Source: Escherichia phage JacquesWildberger_Bas92. From it: a stretch of 64,000 bases of DNA. Positions within the stretch are counted from its first letter, which is position 1, and each line of letters begins with the position of its first letter. The position numbers were made by a program, and so were the translations under genes. A model generated the notes under the pieces. The model saw only the letters and a program-made list of their open reading frames with translations. It made no database searches and was not told the DNA's origin. Below are positions 1 to 59,034 of the stretch, piece after piece. The stretch lies in sequence record PQ850610.1; one strand, written 5' to 3'.

Positions 1-1542
1 ATGTCATTAGATAAACAAATTTATGAAGCTCTAACTGGTAACAACCTTAGTGTAGACGAAAAGAAAGCACTATTGAATATGTTGAAAGAGCGTGACCAAT
101 GGAGGAAGTATAATAAGATTTTGTCTTTCAAGGCGTATGACTTCCAAAAGAAATTTTATGCAGCAGGATTGAATCATCGCTTCAGATTCTTGTGTGCAGC
201 GAACCGTGTTGGTAAATCTTATAGCGAGGCATACGAGTTTGCTTGTCATGTCACAGGTCGCTACCCAACTTGGTGGACAGGGTATAAATTTAAAAGACCT
301 ATCTTAGCATGGGCAGTTGGTATTACAGGGGATTCAACAAGGAAGGTATTGCAAAAGGAGTTGTTTGGTACACCTATTGGAAAGGATACAAATTTATTAG
401 GGACAGGTGTCATTCCTCGTGATGCTATCGTCATTGATACGATAGAACGAGATGGTAACAAACTTCAAATCGTACAAATCAAACATCAAAATGAGAGAGG
501 AGAATTTGACGGTTTAAGTACATTAGAATTCCGTTCAACCCAACAGGGTGAACACACATTGATGGGTGCAACAGTTGACTACATTTGGTTAGACGAGGAA
601 GATCCATACGAGTCTATGGCTATATTCGCACAGTGCGTCACACGTACACTCACAACTAAAGGTCTAGTTACAATTACAGCTACACCAGAGAATGGTTTAA
701 CTGAACTGGTAGATAAATTTATGAAAGGTGAAGGAGATGAGAACACAGGTTCTCTATATTTCCAGAATGCTTCTTGGTGGGATGCTCATGTAGACCTAGG
801 TGGACACATCACTGACCAAGATATAAAAGATATGACTGAAGGTATTCCAGCGTGGCAGTTAGAGATGCGTTCAAAAGGTATGCCATTGTTAGGAAGTGGT
901 TTGATTTATGATATATCGGATGACACAATTAAATGTGAACCATTCGAAATTCCTGATACGTGGAAACGTGTCTGTGCAATTGATATTGGTATTGATCACC
1001 CAACTGCTGCTGTTTGGACAGCTTACGACGCAAACACGGATACTATCTATGTCTACGACTCATATAAAGAAGGTGGCTTTACTCCAGTGTATCATGCTCC
1101 AGCTATTAATGGTCGTGGTCAGTGGATTCCTGTCATCCTGCCGCATGATGCGGACAATATTGAGAAAGGTAGTGGTTCATCTGTTGCTCAATTCTATAAG
1201 AATGCAGGGGTTAATGTACAGAGTGAGACCTTCTACAACAAAATTGGAATGGATGGTAAAAAGAACTTCTTTGTAGAACCGGGAATCACAGATATCCGAG
1301 AAAGAATGATGAGTGGACGCTTTAAAATCTTTAACACAGCCGCTAACGCTAAGCTATTCGAAGAGAAAGCTAGATATCACCGTAAGGTTGGTAAGATTAT
1401 TAAAGAACACGATGACTTAATGGATGCAATGCGCTATTCAGCGTGTTCCGTTACACATCGTGGTCGCTCTAAGCATGATGCTAGCTACGGAAGCGCTTCT
1501 TTATATGAGGCAAACGTAAGCAGATGGAATCAGAGCTACTAA
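1..1542 (+). CDS. terL: terminase large subunit
   Basis: 513-aa ORF; N-terminal ATPase-like region with Walker-A-like AANRVGKS, C-terminal acidic nuclease-like motifs (WLDEEDP, IDIGIDHP); immediately upstream of portal. Confidence 0.8.
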   Translation: MSLDKQIYEALTGNNLSVDEKKALLNMLKERDQWRKYNKILSFKAYDFQKKFYAAGLNHRFRFLCAANRVGKSYSEAYEFACHVTGRYPTWWTGYKFKRPILAWAVGITGDSTRKVLQKELFGTPIGKDTNLLGTGVIPRDAIVIDTIERDGNKLQIVQIKHQNERGEFDGLSTLEFRSTQQGEHTLMGATVDYIWLDEEDPYESMAIFAQCVTRTLTTKGLVTITATPENGLTELVDKFMKGEGDENTGSLYFQNASWWDAHVDLGGHITDQDIKDMTEGIPAWQLEMRSKGMPLLGSGLIYDISDDTIKCEPFEIPDTWKRVCAIDIGIDHPTAAVWTAYDANTDTIYVYDSYKEGGFTPVYHAPAINGRGQWIPVILPHDADNIEKGSGSSVAQFYKNAGVNVQSETFYNKIGMDGKKNFFVEPGITDIRERMMSGRFKIFNTAANAKLFEEKARYHRKVGKIIKEHDDLMDAMRYSACSVTHRGRSKHDASYGSASLYEANVSRWNQSY

Positions 1543-1602: not shown

Positions 1603-3846
1603 ATGGCTAAGCAAAAATATAGTGAAGAGGTGTTGGACGAGTTACGTGTTGACCTTCAACGTCGTTTTAATTACGCTCAAGGTTACGTTGACATGGCTGT
1701 TAAGGGCTATGCTCGTGAAGCTTGGGAATATTTCTATGGTAACTTACCTGCACCAGTAACTGCTGGCAGCTCTAGTTGGGTAGATCGTACTGTTTGGGAG
1801 TCTGTTAACGGTACACTGCAAGATATTATTAACGTATTCTGTTCTGGTGATGAAGCAGTTATTTTCGTAGCTGATAACCAACAGGATTCTGATGCTGCTG
1901 ACGTAGCAACTAAATTAGTTAATCAAATTCTTCTGCGTGACAATCCGGGATACAACATTATCTCTTCTGCTGCACAAGAATGTCTGGTTACTCGTAACTC
2001 TTTTATCAAATATTATTGGGATGAGCACACTTCTACCCAAACTGAAGAAGCTGAAGGTGTACCACCGGAGGCATTGGCTGCATATGTTCAGGGATTAGAA
2101 GCTGGTGGACTCAAGAATCTGGAAATCTTCACTGAAGAAAATGAAGATGGTACAGTTGATGTTAAAGTTACTTATGAACAAACTGTTAAACGTGTGAAAG
2201 TTGAATATGTTCCTTCAGAGCAAATCTTTGTTGACGAACATGCTACATCTTTTGCAGATGCACAATACTTCTGTCATCGTGTACGTCGTTCTAAAGAAGA
2301 TCTGGTTGCTATGGGCTTCCCTAAAGACGAGATTGAAGCATTCAACGACTGGACAGATACGATGGATACTACTCAATCTACAGTTGCTTGGTCTCGTACT
2401 GACTGGCGTCAGGACATTGATGCTGACATTGGTACAGATACCGAAGATATCGCTTCTATGGTTTGGGTTTATGAGCACTACATCCGTACTGGTGTTCTAG
2501 ATAAGAATAAAGAGTCTAAACTCTATCAGGTTATTCAAGCTGGTGAGCATATTCTTCACACTGAAGAAGTAACTCATATTCCGTTTGTAACCTTCTGCCC
2601 ATATCCGATTCCGGGTTCCTTCTATGGTCAGTCAGTCTATGACATTACGAAAGATATTCAGGATTTACGTACCGCGTTAGTTCGTGGTTATATTGATAAT
2701 GTCAACAATGCTAACTATGGTCGATACAAAGCACTCGTTGGTGCATATGATCGTCGCTCTCTGCTTGATAACCGTCCCGGTGGAGTGGTTGAAATGGAAC
2801 GTCAGGACGCTATTGACCTGTTCCCATATCATAATCTACCTCAAGGTATTGATGGCCTCCTAGGTATGTCTGAGGAGCTTAAAGAGACACGTACTGGTGT
2901 AACTAAACTTGGCATGGGTATTAACCCTGATGTGTTTAAGAATGATAACGCTTATGCAACCGTAGGCTTGATGATGAATGCTGCACAGAACCGTCTCCGT
3001 ATGGTATGTCGTAATATTGCTCACAACGGCATGGTTGAATTGATGCGTGGTATTTACAACCTTGTCAGAGAAAACGGTGAAGTTCCTATTGAGGTACAAA
3101 CCCCTCGTGGTATGGTTCAGGTAAATCCGAAACAATTACCAGCTCGTCACAATCTTCAAGTTGTGGTAGCTATTTCTCCTAATGAGAAAGCAGAACGTGC
3201 ACAGAAATTAATTAGCTTGAAACAGCTGATTGCAGCAGATGCACAGTTAGCACCTCTCTTTGGTTTGGAGCAAGACCGTTACATGACTGCACAGATCTTT
3301 GAGTTGATGGGTATTAAGGACACTCATAAGTACTTACTGCCTCTGGAACAGTATCAGCCTCCTGAGCCGTCTCCGATGGAAATCCTCCAGCTCGAGATGA
3401 CTAAAGCACAGGTTGAGAATGTACAGGCTTCCTCTCAGAAAATGATTGCTGATGCATTCGACCAACGTGAACGTACTACATTTGAACAGCAGAGAGCTGC
3501 GGATGAGTTAAGTCTGCGTCAGGAAGAGTTGCAGTTCAAGCAAGAAAATGCAGCAGATGCTATGACTCTGGAAAACCGTAAAGAAGATAACAATGCAACT
3601 CTGGAACAAGCTAAGCACAAGTTAGCTCTTATGCAACAGCAGGTCCGTCAGTATGAGTCTGTACTGAAAGAATTGCAGATGGTTATGGAGCATCAGGTAG
3701 ACCAAGAGAAGATTGTTCAGCAATTTCGTGTTCAGGATAAAACTTTGGAACTCCAAAAGAAAGAAGCTAATGTAACTAAGAAAGAGCAACAAGCCTCTCT
3801 CAAAGATTCACGGATTCCAGGCAAACGTCTTGGAAGTAAAAAGTAA
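1603..3846 (+). CDS. portal protein (with C-terminal coiled-coil extension)
   Basis: 747-aa ORF directly after terL, size and position typical of portal; C-terminal third is Q/E/K-rich coiled coil. Confidence 0.6.
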   Translation: MAKQKYSEEVLDELRVDLQRRFNYAQGYVDMAVKGYAREAWEYFYGNLPAPVTAGSSSWVDRTVWESVNGTLQDIINVFCSGDEAVIFVADNQQDSDAADVATKLVNQILLRDNPGYNIISSAAQECLVTRNSFIKYYWDEHTSTQTEEAEGVPPEALAAYVQGLEAGGLKNLEIFTEENEDGTVDVKVTYEQTVKRVKVEYVPSEQIFVDEHATSFADAQYFCHRVRRSKEDLVAMGFPKDEIEAFNDWTDTMDTTQSTVAWSRTDWRQDIDADIGTDTEDIASMVWVYEHYIRTGVLDKNKESKLYQVIQAGEHILHTEEVTHIPFVTFCPYPIPGSFYGQSVYDITKDIQDLRTALVRGYIDNVNNANYGRYKALVGAYDRRSLLDNRPGGVVEMERQDAIDLFPYHNLPQGIDGLLGMSEELKETRTGVTKLGMGINPDVFKNDNAYATVGLMMNAAQNRLRMVCRNIAHNGMVELMRGIYNLVRENGEVPIEVQTPRGMVQVNPKQLPARHNLQVVVAISPNEKAERAQKLISLKQLIAADAQLAPLFGLEQDRYMTAQIFELMGIKDTHKYLLPLEQYQPPEPSPMEILQLEMTKAQVENVQASSQKMIADAFDQRERTTFEQQRAADELSLRQEELQFKQENAADAMTLENRKEDNNATLEQAKHKLALMQQQVRQYESVLKELQMVMEHQVDQEKIVQQFRVQDKTLELQKKEANVTKKEQQASLKDSRIPGKRLGSKK

Positions 3847-57198: not shown

Positions 57199-57486
57199 TT
57201 AATATACTAATCCGTGTAAGAGAAACACTCTCTTAGTTAACTCTGCTTTAGCTCTGTAATAAGCCGTAGAACCTAACAGGCGGCTCTTAACAAAGAACTT
57301 GATGTCATTGCTTACGTCTTGTATTAAACGCTCCTGTACAGCTTCTGAGGAGCTATTAATTGAATCAATTAACACCTTTGTAGATGTGTAATTCACATCA
57401 CCACTCCTTACCGGTTGTAGTTGTAGAGCCACCACACCACTGTGCATTAGATAAGGTTTTAGTCTCCTCATCCATTGCTGCACCAT
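57199..57486 (-). CDS. hypothetical protein (start uncertain; overlaps lipoprotein gene)
   Basis: 95-aa ORF. Confidence 0.25.
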   Translation of the reverse strand: MVQQWMRRLKPYLMHSGVVALQLQPVRSGDVNYTSTKVLIDSINSSSEAVQERLIQDVSNDIKFFVKSRLLGSTAYYRAKAELTKRVFLLHGLVY

Positions 57487-57679
57487 TCATGCATGAGATA
57501 CCATTGTAACGCATATCAATTTCGCCAGAAGGAACCTTCTCACCTTTATGCCAGCGAGATACACAAATACCTTCCACTGCTACTGCACACCATCCATCAG
57601 GACGGCTCTGTACGCAGCCTGTAAGGGCCACACAGACAATGAAGATACAGATTAAGGATATTACACCACCCCAACTCAT
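57398..57679 (-). CDS. Cys-rich lipoprotein
   Basis: signal peptide with lipobox ALTGC; mature part has 5 further Cys. Confidence 0.5.
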   Translation of the reverse strand: MSWGGVISLICIFIVCVALTGCVQSRPDGWCAVAVEGICVSRWHKGEKVPSGEIDMRYNGISCMNGAAMDEETKTLSNAQWCGGSTTTTGKEW

Positions 57680-57697
57680 AACTATCTCCTAATTGAT

Positions 57698-57730
57698 TTG
57701 GTGCGCCCTACAGGATTTGAACCTGTAACC
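57698..57730 (-). pseudogene. tRNA 3'-half-like fragment (T-arm + acceptor 3' strand + CCA) without matching 5' half
   Basis: GGTTACAGGTTCAAATCCTGTAGGGCGCACCA; no complementary GCGCCCT-type 5' strand in the 80 nt upstream. Confidence 0.3.
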
Positions 57731-57777
57731 AATAGCTTAGAAGTAAAACTTCTATCCTTGTAATGAAGTTTTCATTG

Positions 57778-57852
57778 TGGCGTTCCCTCGTGGAATCGAA
57801 CCACGAATAAGAGCTTAGAAGGCTCCAGTTATATCCGTTTAACTAAGGGAAC
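57778..57852 (-). tRNA. tRNA-Arg (anticodon UCU)
   Basis: 75-nt cloverleaf: acceptor GTTCCCT/AGGGAAC, D stem GTTA/TAAC, anticodon loop CTTCTAA, T-arm CGTGG-TTCGATT-CCACG, encoded CCA. Confidence 0.85.
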
Positions 57853-57858
57853 ATTACA

Positions 57859-58209
57859 ATGAAAACTTGCACAACCTGTCACACCCAAAAGGAAGATTCA
57901 GATTTTTACAAGAAAGGAGATCGACTTCATTCTATGTGTAAACAATGTTTCAATGCCTACTGTATTGAACGTTGGAGGCAAAGAAAGACTCAAGCGGTTA
58001 AAGATTTCGGAGGTAAATGTCATGACTGCAATCAAGAATACCCCGATGCAGTCTTTGATTTCCACCACCTAGACCCCTCTGAAAAAGATTTTGATTGGAA
58101 TAAACTTAGACTCCGATCTATTGACTCTATCAGAGAAGAGTTAAGCAAGTGCGTAATGCTCTGTGCTAACTGCCACCGTATTCGTCACATTGATTACCCT
58201 ATCCATTGA
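57859..58209 (+). CDS. HNH homing-endonuclease-like protein
   Basis: CxxC ... FDFHHLDP ... LCANCHRIRH; opposite strand to all neighbours, adjacent to tRNA. Confidence 0.65.
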   Translation: MKTCTTCHTQKEDSDFYKKGDRLHSMCKQCFNAYCIERWRQRKTQAVKDFGGKCHDCNQEYPDAVFDFHHLDPSEKDFDWNKLRLRSIDSIREELSKCVMLCANCHRIRHIDYPIH

Positions 58210-58283
58210 GCTAAGAGCGCTTAATTTATTTAGATCATATCTCGCTTGGTGATAGGACCACACACTTTACATTCATACCAACC

Positions 58284-58535
58284 TTAAGCACATGCAGGGA
58301 GTGTGATGATTTCAGGTTTACCTTCGAACTCTTCAAACAAACCCAAGAATGTAGGGCTATACGTACCAGTACAAACAAACTCATCAAAGAGTTCATTGTA
58401 TGAGGGCTTAATCTTCCAAGCCCACACATAGCCCATCTTATCAATTGCAATGTAACGAGTGTTTAGAGGAACAGTCATCATCACACCATCAACTTCGACC
58501 ACTTTAGTGATTGGTGCAGCTTGGAAGTTTTTCAT
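58284..58535 (-). CDS. hypothetical protein
   Basis: 83-aa ORF. Confidence 0.3.
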   Translation of the reverse strand: MKNFQAAPITKVVEVDGVMMTVPLNTRYIAIDKMGYVWAWKIKPSYNELFDEFVCTGTYSPTFLGLFEEFEGKPEIITLPACA

Positions 58536-59034
58536 ACTTTACCCTTAATTAAAACAACAAAGGCCACCCGATTGGGCAGCCTTTTTTATTTGTTAACTGT
58601 TATAGATCCAATTACCTTGCTTGTTACGGATAGTGGACATTGCATGAACCCAGAAGCCTTCCAGTTTCAGAGCACCATTAGTTACTGCATCCATACGTTC
58701 AGGGCGGTTCATACGTTTGGTTGATACTTTCATACCTATCTCTCTCTTTGTTAGTGGAGGCATTATTGCCAGTTGATATAGCAGATAACCCTATTAAAAG
58801 GACTACCGACTATCTAAACTGGTGAAGACTCCCTACCCCTAGAGAGTCTCCTGAATCCCAAACCAATATGTACCCCTACATATCGGAAAGTCTACCGAAA
58901 ATTAACAGGTTTTAGTCTAACACCGGATGTTCGAGCAAGCTCTCCCTAGCGGTGTGGCATATGCCTGATTTAATAAGTTAATGAGGAACACCCTCACATA
59001 GCCCTCTGATAAGCACAAGGGCTATAAGTCGGTG

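Follow-up and report, generated by a model that had tools for sequence, protein, structure and literature searches.

Introduction

Mobile endonuclease genes usually spare their hosts, either by residing in self-splicing introns or inteins or by occupying intergenic seats, and HNH and GIY-YIG endonuclease genes are already known inside phage tRNA clusters. The closest characterised analogue of the element described here is SegB of phage T4, a free-standing homing endonuclease that recognises a tRNA TpsiC motif and drives the inheritance of adjacent tRNA genes (PMC2330249). Its homologues show statistical association, or co-localisation, with tRNA genes, and SegB-driven rearrangement of the tRNA locus lets T-even phages escape a tRNA-cleaving defence (PMC13096335). 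We analysed a stretch of 64,000 nucleotides (nt), one strand, of Escherichia phage JacquesWildberger_Bas92 (PQ850610.1; hereafter the window, to which all coordinates refer), a phiEco32-like (Kuravirus) coliphage with 99.7% flank identity to BASEL phage Bas93. In this window a tRNA-Arg(UCU) gene lies in two pieces on either side of an HNH endonuclease gene and a second, complete tRNA-Arg(UCU) gene, and the region quite probably represents a filled allele, the resident gene having been invaded by a free-standing homing-endonuclease cassette.

Like that of SegB, the gene for the window enzyme is free-standing and lies amid phage tRNA genes. The SegB recognition site includes a conserved tRNA motif, and SegB homing carries neighbouring tRNA genes to phages devoid of them. 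The window enzyme belongs to the HNH and not to the GIY-YIG family, and its cassette splits a tRNA gene, whereas the SegB gene lies between tRNA genes and splits none. Neither a pair of complementary stubs nor a spare copy with the same anticodon has been described for SegB, whose activity is demonstrated, while that of the window enzyme is predicted from sequence. HNH-family open reading frames (ORFs) likewise occur inside the tRNA clusters of T5 (F-TflI/II/IV) and Felix O1, where they lie between or abut intact tRNA genes, unlike that of the window (PMC2330249). The Felix O1 HNH gene stands in that phage's tRNA cluster beside two more HNH genes, and the annotation of this locus gave no sign of a tRNA gene in two halves that enclose a replacement. 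In the intronless homing and marker exclusion of T4 SegF/SegG, the cleavage-resistant target allele of the donor lies beside the endonuclease gene and replaces the sensitive allele by co-conversion, a trait shared with our proposal; there the target gene is replaced cleanly (PMC2330249), whereas in the window the sensitive allele persists as two stubs bracketing the cassette, which occupies the interior of the gene in the manner of an intron but does not splice.

Two further systems invite comparison. As with group I introns that carry homing ORFs, a tRNA gene harbours, near its anticodon arm, a mobile endonuclease element whose cost to the host is offset; the introns offset it by splicing, whereas the window offers no ribozyme match, five missing bases and a second complete tRNA gene. 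As in archaeal split tRNAs (Nanoarchaeum and others; PMC3218864, PMC4390854), each half is encoded at a place of its own and the acceptor strands of the two complement each other. In archaea the splicing endonuclease joins the halves into a complete tRNA, whereas those of the window, devoid of positions 27-31, would be relics or homology arms. The full-text literature searched, including the Kuravirus comparative paper, contained no description of an endonuclease cassette that does not splice, divides a phage tRNA gene and brings a replacement with the same anticodon, and the cassette of the window is best read as extending the SegB/T5-type association of homing endonucleases with tRNA genes, in a novel form.

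Organisation of the split tRNA-Arg locus

The locus comprises the following features (tRNA numbering, here and below, refers to positions 1-76).

57699..57743 (-): 3' stub of the resident tRNA-Arg(UCU), positions 32-76, 45 nt; 45/45 identical to the tRNA-Arg of LAMP
57744..57777 (-): cassette spacer between passenger tRNA and 3' stub, 34 nt; 28/28 aligned nt identical to Ptacy1532 and TH38
57778..57852 (-): passenger tRNA-Arg(UCU), complete, CCA encoded; ARAGORN, and Rfam tRNA with 59.3 bits (gathering score 29)
57845..57851 (+): probable Shine-Dalgarno sequence of the HNH gene, AAGGGAA, read from the sequence; complement of the 5' acceptor strand of the passenger tRNA
57859..58209 (+): HNH endonuclease gene, 116 amino acids; zinc ribbon (CxxC..CxxC) at the N-terminus, plus an HNH domain
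58195..58220 (-): 5' stub of the resident tRNA-Arg(UCU), positions 1-26, from alignment with LAMP, Bas93 and Ptacy1532

The 3' stub (57743-57699, minus strand; CTTCTAAGCTATTGGTTACAGGTTCAAATCCTGTAGGGCGCACCA) starts with the first base of the anticodon loop, CTTCTAA, and runs through the 3' strand of the anticodon stem, the variable loop and the T-arm to the 3' acceptor strand AGGGCGC, the discriminator A and CCA. Because it is exactly identical to a real tRNA gene in relatives, the fragment is not a chance resemblance. As a complete tRNA it received no ARAGORN call and a sub-threshold Rfam score (17.1 bits, E=1.9), and the region 57699-57769 lacks, locally, the 5' acceptor strand, the D-stem and the anticodon stem's 5' strand that would complete a cloverleaf. 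The initial annotation, made from the window alone, had recognised here a 32-nt remnant with T-arm, 3' acceptor strand and CCA and no pairing 5' half. Those parts are present, but the remnant measures 45 nt and begins at the anticodon loop, and the want of a 5' half holds only locally: the matching half lies at 58199-58220 (-), beyond the HNH gene.

Positions 1-22 of this 5' stub (GCGCTCTTAGCTCAATGGATAG, 58199-58220 (-)) are identical to allele B, the version of the resident Kuravirus tRNA-Arg(UCU) that is intact in LAMP, WFI101126, SU10 and others, and positions 23-26 (58195-58198) read GGTA where that allele has AGCA, counted as three substitutions. The two halves face each other across the HNH gene, 451 nt apart, and the five bases at positions 27-31, which would form the anticodon stem's 5' strand, are missing, so that the resident gene is dead. 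The HNH gene takes its final four codons and its stop codon (58195-58209) from the antisense of the 5' stub. In two traced loci, L026 and L029 (L-numbers denote traced loci or contigs: L001, Bas93; L009, KP12; L010, TH38; L011, Bas94; L012, Bas90; L016, PE006; L018, SU10; L020, FH3; L021, YF01), a change from GAGCA to GAACA in this stub is silent for the HNH protein and breaks the tRNA D-stem, and in the window the stub reads GGGTA, with the D-stem broken and the HNH protein kept. The 5' stub evolves like coding sequence and not like a tRNA. With five positions absent and D-stem-breaking changes in the window, L026 and L029, the halves do not constitute a split tRNA of the archaeal type, although no search was aimed at the bulge-helix-bulge motif of such tRNAs.

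The spacer holds a D-loop-like GGATAGAA (57750-57757) followed by AT-rich GTTTTA where tRNA positions 23-31 would be. This motif, in the general form GG(A/T)TAGA(A/G) with 6-10 AT-rich nt and TTCTAA, recurs at the inner 3' junction in the diverged cassettes L024, L033, L036 and L038. In a predicted fold of 57681-57743 (-), the anticodon loop of the 3' stub, CUUCUAA, pairs with the lipoprotein Shine-Dalgarno sequence UUAGGAG (z=-2.8, 98-nt stretch), a pairing that might affect translation of the lipoprotein or be due to chance.

Empty and filled alleles among Kuraviruses

The locus was compared across 20 Kuravirus loci; a lipoprotein-anchored IMG/VR search returned four loci only. Two flanking genes served as reference.

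57398..57679 (-): phage lipoprotein gene (Pfam Phage_lipoprotein, E=8e-36), downstream flank and anchor of the locus comparison; identity to the window 99.3% in Bas93, 91% in Ptacy1532 and 79% in TH38
58284..58535 (-): small gene of unassigned function, conserved upstream flank; 100% identity in Bas93, 86-89% in Ptacy1532/TH38

In phiEco32 and LAMP the single tRNA-Arg gene is intact and separated by about 22 nt from the lipoprotein start, the exact site of the 3' stub in the window. The initial annotation had proposed looking to relatives for a full second tRNA, and an intact gene does stand at the site of the remnant, though not as a second tandem copy. The cassette is made up of the 451 nt between tRNA positions 26 and 32, namely the opposite-strand HNH gene, the passenger tRNA-Arg(UCU) and the spacer. 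The site is filled in the window, Ptacy1532, Ptacy1479, TH38 and eight metagenome contigs (short), and empty in LAMP, WFI101126, SU10, Bas90 and PH444, the presence/absence polymorphism at one fixed site among close relatives that marks a free-standing homing endonuclease gene.

Between the window and Ptacy1532/TH38 the passenger tRNA and spacer are 100% and the HNH gene 97-98% identical (whole cassette, 97-100%), with flanks of 79-91% identity; in Bas93 the flanks are 99.3-100% identical to those of the window and the cassette is absent. Counting the metagenome contigs, the cassette was found on at least five combinations of upstream and downstream flanks. In TH38 the 5' stub ahead of it is of another allele (GCACCC..., type C), and the allele of the 3' stub is that of the local backbone. 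An element more conserved than its flanks and seated on several versions of them is what a homing gene leaves. Altogether the 20 loci hold at least five intact tRNA-Arg alleles, one deletion (PE006) and two kinds of HNH insertion.

These comparisons show the remnant to be the 3' half of the original tRNA-Arg(UCU) gene and support the view that the clean tRNA-Arg is a passenger that arrived with the HNH gene. The initial annotation had suggested past tRNA gene turnover, possibly mediated by the endonuclease, and the relatives support that suggestion and sharpen it.

The passenger tRNA-Arg

The only ARAGORN tRNA call in the window was a tRNA-Arg with anticodon TCT at 57778-57852 (-). ARAGORN and Rfam thus agree with the clean 75-nt tRNA-Arg(UCU) described initially at these coordinates; the minimum-free-energy fold is a cloverleaf, the covariance-model score is above threshold, and the neighbouring fragment did not turn out to be a complete unusual tRNA. 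A20 and C35, identity elements for the E. coli arginyl-tRNA synthetase, are visible in the sequence.

The passenger is 75/75 identical across 11 carriers. Against the 18.8% of synonymous sites that are polymorphic in the adjoining HNH gene, about 14 polymorphic positions were expected and 0/75 observed (P=1.6e-7, a value that, like the others given here, overstates independence, the carriers being few and phylogenetically related). The passenger tRNA, as well as its HNH cargo partner, is under selection, and its invariance lends indirect support to expression, processing and aminoacylation. Its identity to resident allele B is 68%, and its closest relative is a tRNA-Arg in the tRNA cluster of Klebsiella phage KP12 (Vequintavirinae; 91% identity); an exact 25-mer from it had no IMG/VR match.

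AGA is rare in E. coli and common in phage genes. In the window it accounts for 17.8% of Arg codons, consistent with a useful tRNA and with the rare-codon remark made at the outset. In Kuravirus YF01 AGA likewise represents about 20% of Arg codons, and the authors of that study tie the tRNA to codon usage (PMC9965538). The passenger presumably supplies an AGA-decoding function.

The HNH endonuclease gene

The HNH gene had been noted as the only plus-strand gene of the region, and it is indeed the sole convincing plus-strand ORF in the right-hand half of the window. Its product matches phrog_2255 'HNH endonuclease' (E=1e-31) and is 52% identical to the ORF45 protein of Felix O1. In an alignment of 40 homologues, C54, C57, H69, C102, N104, C105 and H110 never vary and H70 and H106 almost never, which provides the catalytic His, the metal-binding Asn/His and the CxxC..CxxC zinc site of HNH/His-Me finger endonucleases; the beta-beta-alpha-metal fold of these enzymes is also present, and the AlphaFold model has a predicted local distance difference test score (pLDDT) of 90.5. 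The Pfam HNH family PF01844 was matched by 5/40 homologues and sub-threshold by the window protein itself, the ORF alone giving a Pfam match to a RING-like zinc finger below threshold. Sequence searches of the PDB, with the protein or the family profile, returned nothing significant. An exact-protein look-up found no record, because the C-terminal YPIH variant of the window is unique.

Among the 11 carriers the HNH gene has 16 polymorphic sites. Twelve are in codons 1-111 and all of these are synonymous (binomial P=1.4e-9), and the four non-synonymous sites all fall in the last, stub-encoded codons.

The HNH ATG lies 6 nt away from the passenger tRNA's 5' end, and AAGGGAA, within the complement of the tRNA, is the probable ribosome-binding site. 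The same interlock of Shine-Dalgarno sequence and tRNA (AAGGGA or AGAGGA) recurs in L024, L033 and L035.

Related cassettes in other phages

HNH homologues 58-70% identical to that of the window were traced to their contigs, where tRNAs were called and flanks read. In L024, L033/L034, L035 and L036 the order is the same, with a 5' stub ending at about position 26, an antisense HNH gene, a passenger tRNA-Arg(UCU) 4-6 nt from the HNH start, a spacer, and a 3' stub beginning at the anticodon loop. L038 keeps this order with a D-arm-less tRNA-like element as passenger, and L040 is a layout variant. At most loci the stubs' acceptor strands complement each other (ACCCCGA/TCGGGGT and GCGCTCG/CGAGCGC, for example), L033 being the exception. 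L033 resembles Vequintavirinae-like myoviruses of about 145 kb, and L024 has no close relative except the cassette itself.

A second, independent empty/filled pair was found outside the Kuraviruses. L023 is 97.9% identical to the Grimontviridae Proteus phage J3S, in which the tRNA-Arg(UCU) gene is intact; in L023 it is split at the same place by an HNH gene alone.

Some of these loci show further peculiarities. At the usual place of the passenger, L023 has an AT-rich stretch (1940-2000 (-); ATCCTTAATTTATAGTAATAACTATAA...) faintly like the 5' half of the passenger, which may be a decayed copy. In L036 the gene called for HNH homologue P0013 (1501-1926, 141 amino acids) overlaps an opposite-strand ARAGORN tRNA-Arg(UCU) at 1504-1578, and the true start of P0013 is probably downstream, as in other cassettes. 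In KP12 an unannotated HNH ORF at about 2080-2475 (-), on the tRNA strand, abuts the passenger-like tRNA-Arg, and the pair is nested in a split D-arm-less element whose 5' part, GAGGGCG..., pairs perfectly with the 3' stub ...CGCCTTCGCCA, an arrangement that looks like a nested insertion. An annotated KP12 coding sequence of the same length as the HNH gene (351 nt) was considered and proved unrelated, the real KP12 HNH gene being unannotated and on the other strand.

A second HNH family at the same gene

Bas93, FH3, YF01 and Bas91 have an orphan resident 5' stub followed by an unrelated HNH gene (phrog_14913) on the tRNA strand; no similarity was detected between the HNH proteins of the window and of Bas93. 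Downstream of it comes another tRNA-Arg(UCU) or a D-arm-less tRNA-like element (29.7 bits, just over the Rfam threshold), and the 3' stub is wholly lost. Phages 1-6af and 1-6bf gave search matches to the Bas93 cassette over its full length with 88% identity.

The D-arm-less element has a CTTCTAA (UCU) anticodon loop and a long variable region, and occurs in Bas93 (1904-1982 (-)), Bas94 (about 990-1085 (-)), FH3, KP12 and as the passenger of L038. In Bas93 it has an 18-bp outer stem, and its relatives in rV5-like phages are annotated 'tRNA-OTHER'. It is either a working tRNA or a scar.

Proposed mechanism and alternative explanations

The homing-cassette reading builds on what the sequences show, namely a gene in two parts with cargo between them, signs of mobility, selection acting on that cargo, a break point that is conserved, and two pairs of empty and filled sites. 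In co-infected cells, the HNH enzyme would nick or cut the intact tRNA-Arg(UCU) genes of related phages near positions 26-32, and repair would copy the cassette from the filled allele, with the stubs and flanking DNA as homology arms. The passenger would presumably be spared because its sequence differs from that of the resident alleles, and it would replace the lost tRNA function, which would matter given how common AGA is in phage genes and how rare in the host. HNH gene and passenger would travel as one unit, since the ribosome-binding site of the former is the complement of the acceptor strand of the latter, and because tRNA-Arg genes are alike in unrelated phages, the same kind of cassette could land in different phage families. 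Cleavage and homing by the HNH protein are what we infer from these sequence comparisons.

Several observations weigh against this proposal. The position at which the enzyme would cleave is itself conjectural, and the small, related set of carriers tempers the P values. The insert is flanked by an imperfect direct repeat (CAATGGATAGA / CAA-GGATAGA), and this repeat and the conserved AT-rich replacement of positions 23-31 are unexplained by simple homing; the pattern may have been left as a scar when the cassette was founded by insertion, or it may confer immunity at the cut site. The HNH insertion of L023 has no passenger, so compensation is not obligatory. No convincing HNH promoter was seen in the window: neither strand of 57300-58700 holds a sigma-70-like site, and the phiEco32 middle/late motif TAATGTATA matched nowhere near the cassette and showed no enrichment across the window. 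The L033 spacer does contain one good sigma-70-like site, which has no counterpart in L024, and such sites are inconsistent between cassettes. Lastly, the 3' stub is less polymorphic than the synonymous yardstick (2/45, P=0.005), and the spacer too varies less than HNH synonymous sites (P=0.03).

Such low variation might point to a function for the 3' stub itself. Of the alternatives, the one that fares best, and that we nonetheless regard as unlikely, is that the stubs are kept as working RNAs, be it a tRNA half or T-arm minihelix guiding how the polycistronic early transcript is processed, a regulator of the lipoprotein gene or a decoy against a host defence aimed at tRNAs. The predicted pairing of the anticodon loop with the lipoprotein Shine-Dalgarno sequence would fit the regulator, and the stubs persist over very diverged cassettes. 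Against this, the 3' stub is gone entirely from Bas93-type insertions, a hairpin formed by the window spacer is not conserved in Ptacy1532/TH38, and the stubs of L033 mismatch each other. Low 3'-stub variation, moreover, is equally expected if intact, functional alleles renew the stubs at each homing event or if the stubs are selected as homology arms.

Less probable still is an ordinary history of duplication and decay, in which one of two tandem tRNA-Arg genes decayed beside an HNH gene that is there by chance. Phage tRNA loci are variable, this one with its several intact alleles and the simple deletion of PE006 included, and HNH genes are common in such phages, with four in YF01 (PMC9965538). 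Yet the stubs are complementary halves of one gene with the cassette exactly between them, the HNH reading frame ends inside a stub, and the cassette moves relative to the backbone. The same break point (26/27) recurs with HNH proteins of 58-98% identity, in unrelated phages and in the second empty/filled pair, and two intact tandem tRNA-Arg genes devoid of an HNH gene were seen in 0/20 Kuravirus loci.

We attach very little weight to the 451-nt insert being an intron, group I or other, or to the halves being trans-spliced, with the resident tRNA-Arg still made. Group I introns are possible in bacterial and phage tRNA genes, and the complementary acceptor strands of most stub pairs, as well as the little variation of the 3' stub, would suit a product that is still assembled. 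No intron family appeared, however, among the Rfam matches at E<=10 in 57300-58400, the insert lies between positions 26 and 32 and not in the anticodon loop, and it contains a complete tRNA and an opposite-strand ORF. With positions 27-31 absent the joined stubs fold into no cloverleaf, and the 5' stub gathers D-stem-breaking changes while the HNH protein is kept.

An attP-type relic of integrase-mediated insertion into a tRNA gene is extremely unlikely. Integrative elements do typically take along a tRNA gene's 3' portion, from the anticodon loop or T-loop onward, and the identity of E. coli tRNA-Arg genes to allele B reaches 83%. But the phage has the 5' half as well, and its relatives an intact gene at that site. 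No annotated integrase lies near the locus in any relative, Kuraviruses have been characterised as lytic (PMC9965538), and the fragment agrees exactly with phage alleles, as against about 80% with the host gene.

Implications

The homing cassette, as proposed, would represent a third way for a mobile endonuclease gene to spare its host, by inserting into a useful gene while carrying a working copy of it. It would account for the many unrelated sequence versions of the single tRNA-Arg of phiEco32-like phages and offer a concrete route for tRNA genes between unrelated phages. It also points to an annotation trap, in that half-tRNAs and D-arm-less tRNA-like pieces near HNH genes may be scars of such events. 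HNH-driven swapping of tRNA alleles would be a natural candidate for a part in the arms race with tRNA-cleaving defences, as with SegB (PMC13096335). The proposal is testable with phages already in collections, namely BASEL Bas89-94, LAMP and Ptacy1532.

A broader idea is more speculative, and we put it forward as possible rather than probable: tRNA-Arg(UCU) genes may be portable landing pads for widespread self-compensating homing cassettes, in which an HNH gene is interlocked with a spare tRNA of the same anticodon. If so, with a target common to unrelated phages and its halves retained as homology arms, cassettes could move between families (Kuravirus, Vequintavirinae-like, Grimontviridae-like and others), continually swapping tRNA alleles, homing endonucleases would be a main engine of turnover of phage tRNA repertoires, and variant tRNAs able to evade tRNA-cleaving defences of the host could arise in the process.

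Surroundings of the locus

Between its lipoprotein gene and its tRNA-Arg locus, SU10 carries an element of about 122 nt (GGGCTAGTATGGGTGCGGCACCAGAG...GAGCTTCTGGTTCGATTCCAGATAGTCCACCA; about 905-1027 (-)), which also occurs in Bas90, TH38, YF01 (1436-1560), L025 and L028 and is absent from the window. A T-arm, an acceptor-like 3' strand and CCA close the element, and GGGCTAG, at its 5' end, is almost able to pair with that strand; neither ARAGORN nor Rfam (E<=1) recognised it. An analogue follows the tRNA-Arg in Proteus phage J3S and in L023.

In PE006, a Kuravirus with no tRNA, the tRNA-Arg gene is deleted and GCGCCGTTAGCTCAATTG alone is left, fused to the ribosome-binding site of the lipoprotein gene. 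Just upstream of the small gene at 58284-58535, a strong terminator-like hairpin (58559-58584 (-), 11 bp and a T run) indicates that the cassette region is probably part of a transcription unit starting after that point.

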